From Escherichia coli (GTDB lineage Bacteria; Pseudomonadota; Gammaproteobacteria; Enterobacterales; Enterobacteriaceae): DNA of 64,000 bases. Made by a program: the position numbers and the translations under genes. Shown in pieces: positions 36,381 through 44,633 of this stretch (position 1 is its first letter; each line of letters opens with the position of its first letter). The stretch lies in the NCBI RefSeq assembly GCF_003790525.1, contig NZ_CP033635.1, one strand, 5' to 3'. The notes under the pieces are model-generated. The model did not search any database. It was given only the letters and a program-made list of their open reading frames with translations, and was not told the origin of the DNA.

Positions 36381-38075
36381 ATGCATCCCACAGGCCCGCA
36401 TCTCGGGCCTGATGTTCTGTTTCGAGAGTCCAAAATGAAAGTGACATTAACGTTTAACGAACAACGTCGTGCGGCGTATCGTCAGCAAGGGCTATGGGGC
36501 GATGCTTCGCTGGCCGATTACTGGCAGCAGACCGCTCGTGCGATGCCAGACAAAATTGCCGTGGTCGATAATCATGGTGCATCATACACCTATAGCGCGC
36601 TCGATCACGCCGCGAGCTGTCTGGCAAACTGGATGTTGACGAAGGGTATTGAATCAGGCGATCGCATCGCATTTCAACTGCCTGGCTGGTGTGAATTTAC
36701 CGTTATCTATCTTGCCTGCCTGAAAATCGGTGCGGTTTCCGTACCGCTGTTGCCTTCCTGGCGGGAAGCAGAACTAGTATGGGTACTCAATAAGTGTCAG
36801 GCAAAAATGTTCTTTGCACCGACGTTGTTTAAACAAACGCGTCCGGTAGATTTAATCCTGCCGCTGCAAAATCAGCTTCCACAACTACAACAAATTGTCG
36901 GCGTGGACAAACTGGCTCCCGCCACCTCTTCCCTCTCATTAAGTCAGATTCTCGCCGACAATACCCCACTGACTACGGCGATAACGACCCACGGCGATGA
37001 ATTAGCCGCTGTGCTATTTACCTCCGGAACCGAGGGTCTGCCAAAGGGCGTGATGCTAACGCATAACAATATTCTCGCCAGTGAGCGGGCTTATTGCGCG
37101 CGGCTGAATCTGACCTGGCAGGATGTCTTTATGATGCCTGCGCCACTTGGTCACGCAACGGGCTTTCTGCATGGCGTAACAGCACCATTTTTAATTGGTG
37201 CTCGCAGCGTGTTGTTAGATATTTTCACTCCTGCTGCGTGTCTCGCGCTGCTTGAGCAGCAGCGTTGCACCTGTATGCTCGGCGCAACGCCGTTTGTCTA
37301 TGATCTTTTGAATTTACTAGAGAAACAGCCCGCAGACCTTTCAGCGCTGCGTTTCTTTCTTTGTGGCGGTACCACAATCCCCAAAAAAGTGGCGCGTGAA
37401 TGCCAGCAGCGCGGCATTAAATTATTAAGTGTTTATGGTTCCACAGAAAGTTCGCCGCATGCGGTGGTGAATCTCGATGATCCTTTGTCGCGCTTTATGC
37501 ACACCGATGGTTACGCTGCCGCAGGTGTAGAGATTAAAGTGGTCGATGGCGCACGCAAGACCTTACCGCCAGGTTGCGAAGGTGAAGAAGCCTCGCGTGG
37601 CCCCAATGTGTTTATGGGGTATTTTGATGAACCTGAATTAACCGCCCATGCCCTGGATGAAGAAGGCTGGTATTACAGCGGCGATCTCTGCCGCATGGAT
37701 GAGGCTGGCTATATAAAAATAACCGGGCGCAAGAAAGATATTATTGTCCGCGGCGGCGAAAATATTAGCAGCCGTGAAGTGGAAGATATTTTATTACAGC
37801 ATCCTAAAATTCACGATGCTTGTGTGGTTGCGATGCCCGATGAACGCTTAGGTGAACGTTCATGCGCTTATGTCGTGCTGAAAGCACCGCATCATTCATT
37901 ATCGCTGGAAGATGTAGTGGCATTTTTTAGCCGTAAACGGGTCGCGAAATATAAATATCCTGAACATATCGTGGTAATCGAAAAACTACCGCGCACTGCC
38001 TCCGGTAAAATACAAAAATTTTTGTTACGTAAAGATATTCTTCAACGGCTGGAACAAACATGCGTTGAGGCATAA
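36381..38075 (+). CDS. fadK: Short-chain acyl-CoA synthetase FadK (YdiD)
   Basis: AMP-binding motif FTSGTEGLPKG. Start is uncertain between 36381 and the internal ATG at 36435. Confidence 0.85.
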   Translation: MHPTGPHLGPDVLFRESKMKVTLTFNEQRRAAYRQQGLWGDASLADYWQQTARAMPDKIAVVDNHGASYTYSALDHAASCLANWMLTKGIESGDRIAFQLPGWCEFTVIYLACLKIGAVSVPLLPSWREAELVWVLNKCQAKMFFAPTLFKQTRPVDLILPLQNQLPQLQQIVGVDKLAPATSSLSLSQILADNTPLTTAITTHGDELAAVLFTSGTEGLPKGVMLTHNNILASERAYCARLNLTWQDVFMMPAPLGHATGFLHGVTAPFLIGARSVLLDIFTPAACLALLEQQRCTCMLGATPFVYDLLNLLEKQPADLSALRFFLCGGTTIPKKVARECQQRGIKLLSVYGSTESSPHAVVNLDDPLSRFMHTDGYAAAGVEIKVVDGARKTLPPGCEGEEASRGPNVFMGYFDEPELTAHALDEEGWYYSGDLCRMDEAGYIKITGRKKDIIVRGGENISSREVEDILLQHPKIHDACVVAMPDERLGERSCAYVVLKAPHHSLSLEDVVAFFSRKRVAKYKYPEHIVVIEKLPRTASGKIQKFLLRKDILQRLEQTCVEA

Positions 38076-38084
38076 GTCATAAAT

Positions 38085-38120
38085 AATAAAGCACCTTACA
38101 CGCAAGGTGCTTTATTCAAT
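38085..38120. terminator. Bidirectional rho-independent terminator between fadK and the downstream SDR gene
   Basis: AAAGCACCTT-ACACGC-AAGGTGCTTT hairpin with T-rich flanks on both strands. Confidence 0.7.
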
Positions 38121-38125
38121 CTCGA

Positions 38126-38869
38126 TTAACCACGTCCGACATACGGCATATTATTTGCCATAATCGTTATTTCCAGCACATTCGTGGTTACTGGCAACTG
38201 AGCCATCATCTGAATGGTCGCTGCAACATCAGCAACATTCATCATATCTTCCGCTTTAATAGCACCATCTGCCTGATAAACGCCCTTACGCATCCGATTC
38301 GATAATGTCGTTTCCGCATTGCCGATATTAATTTGCCCGCAAGCGATATTAAATTTGCGACAATCCAGGGAAATGGCCTTGGTCAACCCGGTAACAGCAT
38401 GTTTCGACGCCGTGTATGGCGCAGTATAGAGGCGCGGCGTCAGTGCAGAAATCGACGCATTGTTAATAATACGTCCTCCCATTGGCTGCTGCGCTTTCAT
38501 GATTTTAATCGCCTCTTTCGAACACAAAAATGTCGAATGAATATTGGCGTTAAACACGCGCGTCCACTCAGTAAACTCAACCTCTTCAATACTTTTTGCC
38601 GGACTATTATTGCCCGCATTTTTGAACAAGAGATCCAGTCGACCAAAAAGAGCCTTAATCTCGGCAAATAGCGCAACGACAGCGGACTCATCCGTGACAT
38701 CGGCAACCAGAGGAATAAAGCGTTCCTTGGCTAATCCTTGTGCACATTGCTGTAAGGTTTCTTCGTTACGCGCGGCAACAATAACTGTATATCCAATGTC
38801 ATAGAGTGCCTTTGCTGCTGCGTAGCCGATGCCTTTACTTCCCCCCGTCACCAGGGCAATTTTTGTCAT
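38126..38869 (-). CDS. Short-chain dehydrogenase/reductase (SDR) family oxidoreductase (247 aa)
   Basis: TGGSKGIGYAAA NAD(P)-binding motif, NAG motif and catalytic YTASK (YxxxK). Confidence 0.8.
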   Translation of the reverse strand: MTKIALVTGGSKGIGYAAAKALYDIGYTVIVAARNEETLQQCAQGLAKERFIPLVADVTDESAVVALFAEIKALFGRLDLLFKNAGNNSPAKSIEEVEFTEWTRVFNANIHSTFLCSKEAIKIMKAQQPMGGRIINNASISALTPRLYTAPYTASKHAVTGLTKAISLDCRKFNIACGQINIGNAETTLSNRMRKGVYQADGAIKAEDMMNVADVAATIQMMAQLPVTTNVLEITIMANNMPYVGRG

Positions 38870-39371: not shown

Positions 39372-40330
39372 TTATTGAGTAACAGGGGTAATAACTGGCC
39401 GTCCGCTAAAGAAAGCCTGTAAGTTATCAAATACCAAATCCGCCATCGCATTAAACGTTTCGCTCGTACCACTGGCGATATGTGGCGTAAGGACAACGTT
39501 ATCCAGCGACATTAATTGTTCTGGCACATGTGGTTCGTTGGCATAAACGTCCAGTGCCGCACCAGCAATGATGTTATTTTGCAGAGCATCAATCAGATCG
39601 GTTTCGTTCACCACTGATCCCCGGGAAATACTGATCAAATGCCCGGTTTTCCCCAGAGCCTGCAGCACCGTTTTGTCAATAACGCCGCGCGTACTCGCGC
39701 CGCCTGGCAGCGTCAGAACGAGGAAGTCCACCGCTTGCGCCAGAGAAACCAACGAATCATGCGCCGTCCAATCAGGTTTGTTATGCGGTTTTGGGTCGAA
39801 ATAGTGAATTTCCATTTCAAATGCTGCTGCACGGCGGGCTACTGCGTTACCAATGTTCCCCAGACCGACAATTCCGCAACGTTTGCCACTCACTTTCGTC
39901 GCCATCGGGAAACGCCCCTCGTTTGGCCAACGGCCGTCACGAACATAACAATCGGCAATGTTAATACGTCGGGCAACATTGAGTAACAACGCTATACCAA
40001 TGTCTGCGACACAGTCATTAAGCACGCCAGGTGTGTTGGTGACGATAACGCCATGCTCCCTGGCTGCCACGATATCAATAGGGTCATAACCCACACCGTT
40101 GCTGGCAATAATCTTCAGATTCGGAATTTTTCTATTAGCGCCCGAGAAGCCCCCATTACCGGATTACCACTGGTCACCAGCGCCTGAATATCCGGCGCGA
40201 TTTGCGTGTAAAAAGCGCCTTCATCAGCCAGTTCCCACAGGCGATATGCGGTGAAGGTAGATTCAACTTTAGCCATTAAGCGGTCACTTAATTTGCCGAC
40301 GATCGCCACTTGAATATCTTTTAAGTTCAT
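39372..40330 (-). pseudogene. D-isomer-specific 2-hydroxyacid dehydrogenase, split by a probable 1-nt deletion
   Basis: N-terminal 71-aa ORF (40115..40330) and C-terminal 240-aa ORF (39372..40094; GIVGLGNIGNAVA NAD motif, catalytic His in HIASGT) are in different frames. The junction reads GAAAAATTCCGAATCTGAAGATT (minus strand); one extra C would give the contiguous EKFPNLKIIASNGVGYDPIDI. Confidence 0.7.
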
Positions 40331-40365: not shown

Positions 40366-41772
40366 TTACCACAGGCCAAGAATTTTCCACCACACCGCCC
40401 CCAGTCCGAACCAGATGGCAATGTTCAACAACATGACGATAAAGCCCAGCCGCCACCATTCTCGTTGCGAGACATAGCCAGCGCCGTAATAGATCACTGC
40501 GGGTCCGTTGCCATAATGCGAAATGCCGCTCATCAGGTTAGTGACGAACGCCAGTGACAGAGCCGCCATCATCGGCGGTGCGCCAGCAGCAACCGAGACG
40601 CTGCCAAAAGCGGCATACATCGCCACTACATGCGGCGTACTTCCGGCAAAGAAATAGTGGGAATAGCAGTAAACTATCAGCAACACCGTCAACGTTATCT
40701 CCCACGGAATGCCGGTGAACAGCGCCGAGGTTGTGACGGCAAACCATTTGAACAGGCCAAGCTGATTGAGCTTATCTGCCATACAGATCATGACTCCCAG
40801 CCAGACCAGAATGTCCCAGGCCCCCTTCTCTGACTGCACATCCTGCCAGGTGATAATCCGGGTCATCAACATTAAACAGACGCCAGAAAGCGCGACAGCC
40901 GTCGCATCCAGGCCAGTCCATTTCGATGTACTCCAGGCCAATAATGAAAGCAGGAAAATGCCAATTGTCACGCGCTCATCACGGGTTACCGGCCCCATTT
41001 TGATAAGTTCTTCCTGTGCCAACGCTTTGGCTTCTGGCGTCTTTTTGATCTCTGGCGGGTAGAGTTTGTAAATGACCAACGGCATAGTGATAAAAGCGAT
41101 AATGCCCGGCACCAGTGCGCTTAGCGTCCACATCCCCCATGAGATATCGACAAATAAAGTGCTGGCCGCCAGAGATACAATGAGTGCATTTGGCGCGCTG
41201 GCCGTCATAAACATCGAGGATGAGAGACAGTTGGAATGGAACACCGTCTGCATCAGATAAGCGCCTATTTTACGCGGCCCTTGATCCGGTTCAGATCCAA
41301 AGCTGTTAGAGACACTGCGAACAATCGGGAACAAAATCCCTCCTGCTCGCGCTGTGTTTGATGGCGTTGCGGGCGCGATAATCATATCGCTTAGCGCCAA
41401 TGTATAACCCAGACGCAACGAGCTGCCGCCAAATCCGCGAATCAGCAAATAGGCGATACGCCGCCCCAACCCCGTTTTGATGAATCCTTTCGCGTACAGG
41501 AATGCGGCGACAATAAGCCATACCGTCGTGCTGCTGAAACCTTTTAAGGCTTCGCTGGTTTTCATCATACCGGTCAGCATAATAAAACTGATGGCTATTA
41601 ACGCGATAGCGCCCACCGGCAACGGTTGCAGAATAAACGCCACCACAGTGGTGATAAATATGGCCAGAATGTGCCAGGTTAAGGGTGTTAATCCGTCGGG
41701 GACGGGGAAAAACCATATAGCGAGTGCGACAATCGCACAAATCAGGACTTTCAAATAGCAACTCATATGCAA
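40366..41772 (-). CDS. DASS-family anion transporter (CitT/TtdT-like), 466-468 aa
   Basis: Motifs shared with E. coli CitT: FPVPDG, GFSSTTVWL, GLGRRIA, TPSNTARAGG, SSSMF, YWRLG-like C-terminus. The second ATG at 41766 has the better Shine-Dalgarno spacing. Confidence 0.8.
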   Translation of the reverse strand: MHMSCYLKVLICAIVALAIWFFPVPDGLTPLTWHILAIFITTVVAFILQPLPVGAIALIAISFIMLTGMMKTSEALKGFSSTTVWLIVAAFLYAKGFIKTGLGRRIAYLLIRGFGGSSLRLGYTLALSDMIIAPATPSNTARAGGILFPIVRSVSNSFGSEPDQGPRKIGAYLMQTVFHSNCLSSSMFMTASAPNALIVSLAASTLFVDISWGMWTLSALVPGIIAFITMPLVIYKLYPPEIKKTPEAKALAQEELIKMGPVTRDERVTIGIFLLSLLAWSTSKWTGLDATAVALSGVCLMLMTRIITWQDVQSEKGAWDILVWLGVMICMADKLNQLGLFKWFAVTTSALFTGIPWEITLTVLLIVYCYSHYFFAGSTPHVVAMYAAFGSVSVAAGAPPMMAALSLAFVTNLMSGISHYGNGPAVIYYGAGYVSQREWWRLGFIVMLLNIAIWFGLGAVWWKILGLW

Positions 41773-42218
41773 TCCCTGTAGCTGTTTCCCACCGCTCGCG
41801 GAGGGAATTTATCCTGTTTTCTGTACAGCCAGACAAATCAGAAAATCGGTTTTAGTTCGAATAAATTCTCTGAATTACATAATCTGCGCTTATGTCTGAA
41901 TAACGGTGCGGTAATTTTTCATGGCCATATCCCTTTTTATGCTGTGGTTGAAGATAGTATAAAAACGGGACTCATCAGTGACTTCGTGCAATCCAACGAA
42001 CTCTGGACGAAAAAATTACGCATATGCTTAAGGAAATTGACGTGTGGTCACATTCGGCTTTGAGAAAAAACGGTATCGAGAATTATTCTGTGGAGAGGAT
42101 CGCAAACAAATTAAAATCAGAAAGAACAGCAGCCAATTATTCAGATGATGTCCGGAAACTTTTTATATTGCATGAGCGCGTTTGCCCAAAGCAGGTTGTT
42201 AAAAGGTGGGGATATAGA

Positions 42219-42253
42219 AATGGACCCGGCGACTGAACGCCGCCGGGTTTTTA
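42219..42253. terminator. Terminator hairpin abutting the ppsA stop codon
   Basis: ACCCGGCG-ACTGAA-CGCCGGGT followed by TTTTTATTT on the plus strand; likely the ppsA terminator acting bidirectionally. Confidence 0.6.
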
Positions 42254-42254
42254 T

Positions 42255-44633
42255 TTACTTGTTAAGTTCAGCCAGACTTAACCAGGTTTGCACCACGGTG
42301 TCCGGGTTAAGAGACAGGCTATCGATCCCCTCTTCCATCAACCATGCAGCAAAGTCTTCGTGGTCGGATGGACCCTGACCGCAAATCCCGACATATTTGC
42401 CCTGTTTCTTCGCGGCACGAATCGCCATCGACAGCAGTGCTTTCACCGCATCGTTGCGCTCATCGAACAGTTCAGATACCACGCCGGAGTCACGATCCAG
42501 ACCGAGCGCCAGCTGCGTCATGTCGTTTGAGCCAATTGAGAAGCCGTCGAAATATTCGAGGAACTGCTCGGCCAGCAAGGCGTTGGACGGGATTTCACAC
42601 ATCATGATGATTTTCAGCCCGTTCTCACCACGTTTCAGCCCCTGACGCGCCAGTTCCTCAACCACCGCTTTCGCCTGATCTACGGTACGCACGAACGGGA
42701 TCATGATCTCAACGTTGGTCAGCCCCATGTCGTTGCGCACACGTTTCACTGCTTCACACTCCAGCGCGAAGCAGTCGCGGAAGCTGTCGGAAACATAGCG
42801 GCCCGCGCCACGGAAGCCGAGCATCGGGTTCTCTTCATCTGGCTCGTAACGCTCACCACCGACCAGGTTGGCATATTCGTTCGATTTAAAATCAGAGAGA
42901 CGGACAATGACGCGCTTCGGATAAAACGCGGCACCCAGCGTCGCGATCCCTTCAGTCAGACGACCAACGTAAAATTCACGCGGAGAATCAAAACCTTTCA
43001 TCATCTCGCGGATTTCGTTTTGCAACTGCGGTTCTTGATCGTCAAACTCAAGCAGCGCGCGTGGGTGGACGCCAATCATACGGTTGATGATAAATTCCAG
43101 ACGCGCAAGGCCCACGCCTTCGTTCGGCAGGCAGGCGAAGTCGAAAGCACGATCCGGGTTACCGACGTTCATCATCACCTTCAACGGCAGGTCCGGCATC
43201 GTTTCTACGCTGGAGCTTTTCACGCTAAATTCCAGCAACTCCGCATAGACATAACCGGTATCACCTTCGGCACAAGAAACAGTGACGTTCTCACCGTCTT
43301 TCATCCGTTCTGTTGCATCACCACAGCCCACTACCGCCGGAATGCCGAGTTCACGAGCGATGATCGCCGCGTGACAGGTACGACCGCCACGGTTGGTGAC
43401 GATGGCAGATGCTTTCTTCATGATCGGTTCCCAGTCCGGGTCGGTCATGTCAGTAACCAGCACGTCACCAGGTTCGATGCGGTTCATTTCGCTGATGTCA
43501 TGGATGACTTTCACCGGACCCGCGCCGATGCGATGACCGATAGCACGGCCTTCGGCGATAATCTTACCCTGTGAATGCAGCGTATAACGCTCCATGACCT
43601 GACCGCGTGAGCGCACGGTTTCCGGACGCGCCTGCACAATGAACAGTTTGCCGGTGTGGCCATCTTTCGCCCACTCAATATCCATCGGGCGACCGTAGTG
43701 TTTCTCAATTTGTACGGCCTGTTTTGCCAGTTCCTGCACTTCTTCGTTGGTCAGCGAGAAGATGTCACGCTGTTCCTGCGGTACGTCTTCGATTTTAACC
43801 TGCTTGCCGTGCTCCTGGGTCGGCGCGTAAACCATGCGGATTTTTTTCGACCCCATGGTGCGGCGCACGATAGCCGGGCGATTCGCCGCCAGTGTCGGTT
43901 TGTGCACGTAAAACTCATCCGGGTTAACCGCACCCTGCACGACCATTTCACCAAGGCCCCATGCGGAAGTGATAAACACCACCTGGTCAAAGCCGGATTC
44001 GGTATCAATGGAGAACATCACGCCAGAAGATGCGAGGTCGGAGCGCACCATCCGCTGAACACCGGCGGAGAGCGCCACGCCACGGTGATCGTAACCCTGG
44101 TGCACACGATAAGAGATGGCGCGATCGTTAAACAGAGAAGCAAATACATGTTTCACTGCCACGAGAACGGCGTCAAAACCCTGAACGTTGAGGAAGGTTT
44201 CCTGCTGACCGGCAAAAGAAGCGTCCGGCATATCTTCTGCAGTAGCGGAGGAACGCACCGCAAACGAGGCGTTTTCGTCATCGGCGGAAAGCTGTGCATA
44301 GGCTTCGCGGATGGCGTTTTCCAGCTCAGGCTGGAAGGGAGTGTCGATAATCCACTGGCGGATTTGCGCGCCCGCTTTCGCAAGCTGGGTAACATCGTCA
44401 ATATCCGTTTTATCCAGCAGTTCATAAATGCGCTGGTTTACGCCGCTTTGGTCCAGAAACTGGTTAAACGCGTCGGCGGTTGTGGCGAAACCATTCGGAA
44501 CGGAAACACCCATTCCGGAAAGGTTAGTAATCATTTCACCCAGGGAGGCATTTTTGCCCCCAACCCTGTCTACATCATTCATGCCGAGTTGGTTATACCA
44601 AAGCACCAGCGGTGACGAGCCATTGTTGGACAT
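42255..44633 (-). CDS. ppsA: Phosphoenolpyruvate synthase (792 aa)
   Basis: Full-length PpsA by sequence, [34 protein letters not shown] onwards. Confidence 0.96.

Follow-up and report, generated by a model that had tools for sequence, protein, structure and literature searches.

Non-coding control region probably occupies the stretch between an island permease gene and ppsA in Escherichia coli

Bidirectional terminators are found at hundreds of convergent gene pairs of Escherichia coli (Ju et al. 2019, as summarised in bioRxiv 10.1101/2022.10.23.513370) and, according to that summary, a single element between two such genes can set 3' ends in both directions. The fadK and ppsA genes of E. 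coli K-12 form a convergent pair separated by just 56 bp, and the gap holds a G+C-rich hairpin, CCCCGGCG-ACTAAACGC-CGCCGGGG (NC_000913.3 ~1784702-1784726; L003 4703-4727), with the features of a two-faced intrinsic terminator; a literature search on the fadK/ppsA terminator found no paper. Class II activation provides a second point of comparison, in which sigma-70 promoters combine a weak -35 element with an upstream inverted-repeat site near -42. A third is provided by spurious genes called ab initio in intergenic DNA.

The window analysed here, a stretch of 64,000 nt from E. coli (assembly GCF_003790525.1, contig NZ_CP033635.1), carries a ~4.2-kb island between fadK (plus strand, end at 38075) and ppsA. 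Its four minus-strand genes (Table 1) make up an uncharacterised acid-transport and oxidoreductase set, and none of them encodes a regulator. The gap from the permease start (41766, or TTG 41772) to the ppsA stop (42255) measures 482-488 bp, in agreement with the ~480 bp given by an earlier reading of the sequence alone (the sequence-only reading). Of 5426 complete E. coli genomes, 114 (~2%) carry the 482-bp stretch, as a single chromosomal copy every time; identity is 99% or higher for 80 of the 114 copies and 90-95% for the other 34. Among the 30 listed annotation rows from these 114 genomes, PGAP places no feature inside the stretch. The window was aligned with five diverged copies: Santai (the 94.8% E. 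coli haplotype), Escherichia sp. E4385, E. whittamii, Escherichia sp. MOD1-EC7003, and an insertion sequence (IS)-bearing E. coli.

The island is delimited by comparison with K-12, which the sequence-only reading had proposed and which found only the hairpin and ppsA in common. The blastn match of the 482-bp stretch to K-12 is limited to query positions 453-482, and the point at which K-12 homology begins (window position 42225) therefore marks the right island edge, so that this boundary is now fixed at the K-12 terminator. fadK departs from its K-12 counterpart over the last ~12 codons, which places the left junction within them, at ~38040. A new hairpin, AAAGCACCTTACACGCAAGGTGCTTT, lies at 38087-38112, between fadK and the convergent SDR gene. 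Compared with SMS-3-5, the island 2-hydroxyacid dehydrogenase gene lacks 1 nt at ~40126-40128 (AAAAATTT to AAAAATT), which cuts it into ORFs of 71 and 240 aa. The missing base is a sequencing error or has turned the gene into a pseudogene in this strain.

Stretch 41767-42254 is very probably non-coding on the plus strand: it would be the control region of the island operon, with open frames that are accidents and a hairpin that is the K-12 terminator. A mapped control region offers a starting point toward the regulator and inducer of the island.

Table 1. Features of the island, its leader, and the adjoining genes (positions in the window)
Feature	Position	Strand	Details
SDR oxidoreductase gene	38126-38869	minus	Island gene, convergent with fadK
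YhcH/YjgK/YiaL-family protein gene		minus	Island gene, between the SDR and 2-hydroxyacid dehydrogenase genes
2-Hydroxyacid dehydrogenase gene	39372-40330	minus	Island gene
Anion permease gene, Na_sulph_symp/CitMHS type (DASS family)	40366-41766	minus	Island gene
Proximal leader element	41767..41845	minus	~80 nt; inverted repeat, hairpin, Shine-Dalgarno (~41779-41772), permease ATG 41766
93-codon open frame	41782-42060, stop 42061-42063	plus	Without ATG; first start GTG 41944, giving 39 aa
Relic of an upstream 2-hydroxyacid dehydrogenase gene, apparently deleted	41890..41936	minus	Shine-Dalgarno AAGGGA, ATG 41922, 10-codon ORF MKNYRTVIQT, stop 41892-41890
Block AACCACAGC, then AAGGGAT and ATG		minus-sense	Conserved in three genera
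Candidate -10 element TATACT of the island operon	41956..41961	minus	TTTTTATACT invariant in E. coli, C. youngae, and UBA3516
Block TTTTTATACT	41965-41956	minus-sense	Contains TATACT
Conserved upstream blocks of the island operon, putative protein-binding sites	41978..42093	minus	Kept across E. coli, C. youngae, and UBA3516
Inverted repeat ACTTCGT-N8-ACGAACT	41981-42002	plus-sense	Minus-sense TTCGT-N8-ACGAAGTC
Block GCATATGCG	42027-42019	minus-sense	
Palindrome GCATATGC	42020-42027		Contains the ATG of the 70-codon ORF
70-codon ATG ORF	42024..42236	plus	70 aa; TGA at 42234-42236
Block TCACAT	42048-42053	plus-sense	Minus-sense ATGTGA
Block AATTATTCTGTG	42082-42093	plus-sense	Minus-sense CACAGAA-AATT
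Variable spacer without detectable constraint	42093..42223		C-terminal two-thirds of the 70-codon ORF; no C. youngae counterpart
Right junction of the ~4.2-kb island	42224..42225		K-12 homology starts here (blastn, alignment)
G+C-rich hairpin	42224..42248	both	Perfect 8-nt arms 42224-42231/42241-42248, loop 42232-42240
ppsA	42255-44633	minus	Adjoins the leader stretch

The hairpin at the right end of the stretch, ACCCGGCG-ACTGAACGC-CGCCGGGT, is the known convergent, two-faced fadK/ppsA terminator of K-12, in which termination itself is predicted here. It had been placed at 42225..42244; the hairpin exists, but its span is the longer one of Table 1. The stem (8-10 bp) lies 6 nt past the ppsA stop, at the same distance as in K-12, and both hairpins have A/T-rich tracts on either side. 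The stem core, CCCGGCG/CGCCGGG, is invariant in K-12, the window, and Santai, whereas the loop varies: the window differs from K-12 by one loop change, and the Santai loop is different again. The outermost pair has changed on both sides, being C-G in K-12 and A-T in the window. Folding of the minus strand gives -21.1 kcal/mol (z = -5.6; 0 of 200 shuffles as good) and that of the plus strand -17.7 kcal/mol (z = -2.9), so that the hairpin is more stable than chance would give. A hairpin-plus-T-run scan scored the element as terminator-like on both strands. The plus-strand T-rich tail, TTTTTATTT (42249-42257), overlaps the ppsA stop codon and is better in the window than in K-12; the minus-strand tail, CCATTTCTAT, is weaker yet passes the rule of the scan. 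The element resembles the bidirectional terminators of other E. coli convergent pairs; what both of its strands show is the sequence pattern, and termination is a prediction. It would end ppsA transcripts (in K-12 also those of fadK), would stop any plus-strand leader transcript heading to ppsA, and would shield ppsA from the island promoter region and vice versa. Because fadK of the island strain has its own hairpin at 38087-38112, the plus-strand face serves fadK no longer.

The origin of the remainder of the stretch is indicated by relatives of the island. A genome scan with the permease found counterparts in E. whittamii, MOD1-EC7003, Citrobacter youngae (94% amino acid identity), the metagenome-assembled genome (MAG) UBA3516 of an uncultured member of the Enterobacteriaceae (92%), and others; contig L019 came from scanning metagenomes for a conserved 25-base pattern. 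C. youngae has the same four genes from the permease start onward, and its 319-bp upstream region aligns with the leader of the window up to ~42093. In UBA3516, a 2-hydroxyacid dehydrogenase gene, whose product is only 48% identical to the island's dehydrogenase, lies directly upstream of the permease gene. Two parts of the window leader match this arrangement: positions 41918-42006 correspond to the region upstream of and including the dehydrogenase start, and positions 41767-41848 correspond to the dehydrogenase-permease spacer, which in L019 again follows the same dehydrogenase gene. The upstream region of L008, an Enterobacterales MAG with a 77% identical permease, is unrelated and was set aside as a leader relative.

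These matches identify the one gene remnant in the leader, a minus-strand relic of the dehydrogenase gene. Its Shine-Dalgarno sequence and ATG align with the UBA3516 dehydrogenase start (L006 4976, in region L006 4940-4980). C. youngae (L007 5870-5920) has an ORF of 9 codons there and has also kept ~15 nt from the 3' end of the lost dehydrogenase gene: its AACCCGGTTGTATAA matches the final codons of the UBA3516 gene, CACCCCGGTTGTTTAA, almost exactly. The E. coli and Citrobacter leader would have arisen by deletion of the upstream dehydrogenase gene, joining its promoter and start directly to what had been the intercistronic element. The sequence-only reading had considered that the frames could be remnants of a gene lost upon island acquisition. 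A lost gene is indeed represented, on the other strand, but its loss is common to Citrobacter and consequently goes back to a time before the island reached E. coli; the plus-strand frames themselves are no such remnants, as their counterparts in C. youngae and UBA3516 are non-coding and nothing similar is encoded there.

Upstream of the relic, E. coli, C. youngae, and UBA3516 have a series of short blocks in common, separated by DNA that has diverged. The block containing TATACT is the candidate -10 element. TATACT is fixed at 12 nt from the CGAAGTC block and, in UBA3516, lies 32 nt before the first ATG, that of the dehydrogenase. The matching -35 element is poor (3/6 match), and a promoter consensus scan called no minus-strand sigma-70 site, so that the promoter is positioned by conservation alone. 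Island transcription would start ~7 nt after TATACT, near 41948. The near-consensus -10, poor -35, and inverted repeat ~43 bp upstream of this predicted start resemble class II activator-dependent promoters, and ~140 bp of conserved blocks with a weak -35 has the appearance of activator-dependent control. The island comes without a regulator gene; a regulator encoded elsewhere would bind the inverted repeat centred near -43 and further sites upstream, a protein-binding role that we propose for the blocks from sequence conservation. Two specific candidates were considered and are not claimed: a CRP site at ATGTGA (42053-42048), in which the second half-site misfits by eye, and a sigma-54 promoter at TTGCAC, in which the GG/GC spacing misfits by eye. 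Read along the minus strand, the predicted order is the terminator, a spacer of ~130 bp, ~140 bp of blocks with TATACT, the leader with the relic, the former intercistronic element with its two hairpins, and the permease start. The 5' leader would carry the ribosome-binding site, start codon, and ten codons of the ancestral dehydrogenase gene.

The proximal leader element, immediately before the permease gene, is kept in Escherichia, Citrobacter, and uncultured Enterobacteriaceae, whether its position is that of a 5' leader or of an intercistronic spacer (counterparts at L006 5918-6000, L019 226-307, and L007 5921-6000). It contains an invariant UUUUCUG/CAGAAAA inverted repeat at 41845-41817 and a hairpin at 41807-41786, which is predicted in six of six lineages and has double compensatory changes in three of its nine pairs. 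The stems of this hairpin are UUCCCUCCG/CGGUGGGAA in the window, UUCCCUCC/GGAGGGAA in Santai, UUCCUGCU/GGCAGGAA in C. youngae, and UCCCGCCG/CGGCGGGA in L019. UUUUCUG can pair with CAGAAAA or, alternatively, with the Shine-Dalgarno sequence CAGGGA. The element may, tentatively, act in translational control or processing, and the roles of the leader hairpins are likewise predicted from their sequence. A more specific reading, in which the element is an undescribed cis-regulatory RNA controlling translation of the DASS-family permease, is unlikely. An Rfam 15 search of both strands of 41600-42400 (E ≤ 10) gave best scores of 12-23 bits, against thresholds of 40-90.

Divergence from four diverged Escherichia copies is unevenly distributed along the leader. 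It is 1.3-5.7% in 41767-41925 and 3.0-4.8% in 41926-42092, both lower than at permease third positions (~7-14%), which indicates that the left two-thirds of the leader are constrained as non-coding DNA. In 42093-42223, it rises to 6-9%, and to 26% in MOD1-EC7003 including a 14-nt indel; the pace in this right third, where most of the 70-codon ORF lies, is close to that of neutral drift. The drift bears on a reading in which the leader encodes a plus-strand non-coding RNA, antisense to the upstream region of the island operon and running to the terminator. The terminator is good in the plus direction, and weak promoter-like hexamers are found at 42060-42089 and 42140-42169, but such an RNA would cross the near-neutral segment, the MOD1-EC7003 insertion breaks the second promoter-like site, and the Rfam search returned nothing above noise. 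The plus-facing T-tract, moreover, goes back to the terminator that fadK has where the island is absent. A non-coding RNA of this kind is very unlikely.

The two plus-strand frames have lengths within chance expectation. Among 5000 dinucleotide-preserving shuffles of 41773-42254, 8% contained an ATG ORF of 70 or more codons on the plus strand, 15% an ORF with any start on this strand (33% on either strand), and 5.6% an open run of 95 or more codons, again on the plus strand; the frames are thus unremarkable. Direct reading found no Shine-Dalgarno sequence before the start of either frame; the sequence upstream of ATG 42024 (GACGAAAAAATTACGCAT; longer, AAAAAATTACGCAT) contains no purine-rich match. 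The second frame had been placed at about 41821..42066; it exists and contains the peptide then quoted, but its limits are those of Table 1. The 70-codon ORF was described correctly, including its stop within the loop of the hairpin, a position that is a coincidence.

The 70-codon ORF is intact, with its ATG, in the haplotype group of at least 99% identity (80 of 114 genomes) and broken in each copy whose sequence departs from that of the window: by TAG at codon 57 in the Santai type and E4385, by TAA at codon 21 in E. whittamii, and by TGA at codon 8, TAA at codon 21, and the 14-nt insertion in MOD1-EC7003. Its substitutions at codon positions 1/2/3 are spread evenly (5/4/5 in Santai, 3/5/7 in E. 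whittamii, and 10/8/7 in MOD1-EC7003), whereas ~90% of those in the permease gene of the same copies fall at position 3 (1/2/32, 3/1/57, and 5/2/64, respectively). The 93-codon frame also lacks a third-position excess (4/1/3, 0/3/1, and 2/6/4). This frame is unbroken in four diverged copies, which, with just 4-12 substitutions per copy, is weak evidence either way; its openness is a by-product of conservation of the regulatory sequence that it overlaps. Coding constraint is thus absent from both frames.

These results also bear on the possibility that the 70-codon ORF is a young small-protein gene of the window's haplotype, with a transcript ending at the plus-strand face of the terminator. 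The intact ORF in 80 genomes, the strong plus-strand T-tract after the stem, and two weak plus-strand promoter-like sites are compatible with such a gene. Against it, the promoter-like sites are not in excess (2, compared with 1.6 in shuffles), and there are the chance length, the missing Shine-Dalgarno sequence, the absence of codon-position bias, and the interruption in all other lineages. The ATG (42024-42026) is the centre of the palindrome GCATATGC, which is conserved also where the ORF is missing, so that the ATG is kept without a coding role. A newborn gene is extremely unlikely, and less likely than the regulatory-RNA reading of the proximal element. The small protein suggested by the sequence-only reading fails on the same grounds, with stops or a frameshift in all diverged copies and no homologues from outside the locus, while its suggestion of chance ORFs in AT-rich leader DNA is borne out by the shuffles, the interruptions, the lack of codon bias, and the searches.

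Homologue searches returned only gene calls from the same locus. Pfam and NCBIfam gave nothing meaningful for either frame or for the fused frame, matches to FliM and RecB at E = 0.05-0.1 being noise. A word-indexed search of 5.8 billion proteins with the fused frames found two matches, P0001 and P0002, both called at this locus. Exhaustive HMMER searching of 1.84 billion representatives turned up one further call made there, a truncated form of 56 aa, and three long repeat proteins. Of the latter, P0004 (1009 aa; E = 9e-11) has seven tandem repeats, each matching at ~29 bits, which inflates the summed score, and it was rejected as a chance match; P0005, in which the score likewise sums six or seven weak repeated matches, was also rejected. 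Like other spurious ab initio calls, P0001, P0002, and P0003 are hypothetical proteins called in intergenic DNA, whereas PGAP leaves the frames uncalled in the complete genomes (30 listed rows). The three entries are artefacts, and the open frames should stay unannotated as genes.

P0002 was considered as an independent homologue with another N terminus and proved to be read-through from an IS5-family insertion. This insertion, in E. coli GCA_001277695 (L014 1-97, at a contig end), lies at ~42035, between conserved leader blocks, and creates a chimeric "hypothetical protein."

A reading of the two frames as halves of one decayed plus-strand gene (e.g., a divergent island regulator), frameshifted in the A6 run at 42006-42011, is barely credible and largely refuted: E4385 has A7 at this run, and an 83-aa protein across both frames (P0001) is called there, but A6 is present in all five other copies, the fused frame has no homologue or domain in Pfam, NCBIfam, or the large protein searches, the divergent neighbour in C. 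youngae, examined as a possible ancestor of the frames, is an unrelated GNAT acetyltransferase, and the homologous DNA of UBA3516 is a promoter region.

P0001 was also rejected as a true fused gene. Its extra A is seen only in the E4385 assembly (L015, GCA_004745385), in which YhcH is in three pieces, the dehydrogenase is in two, and fadK, ppsR, and aroH are shortened. A second extra homopolymer base lies 75 nt from the A7 run, and in view of these bases and the many split genes, the fusion is most likely an assembly error. Proteins predicted from this assembly should be treated cautiously.
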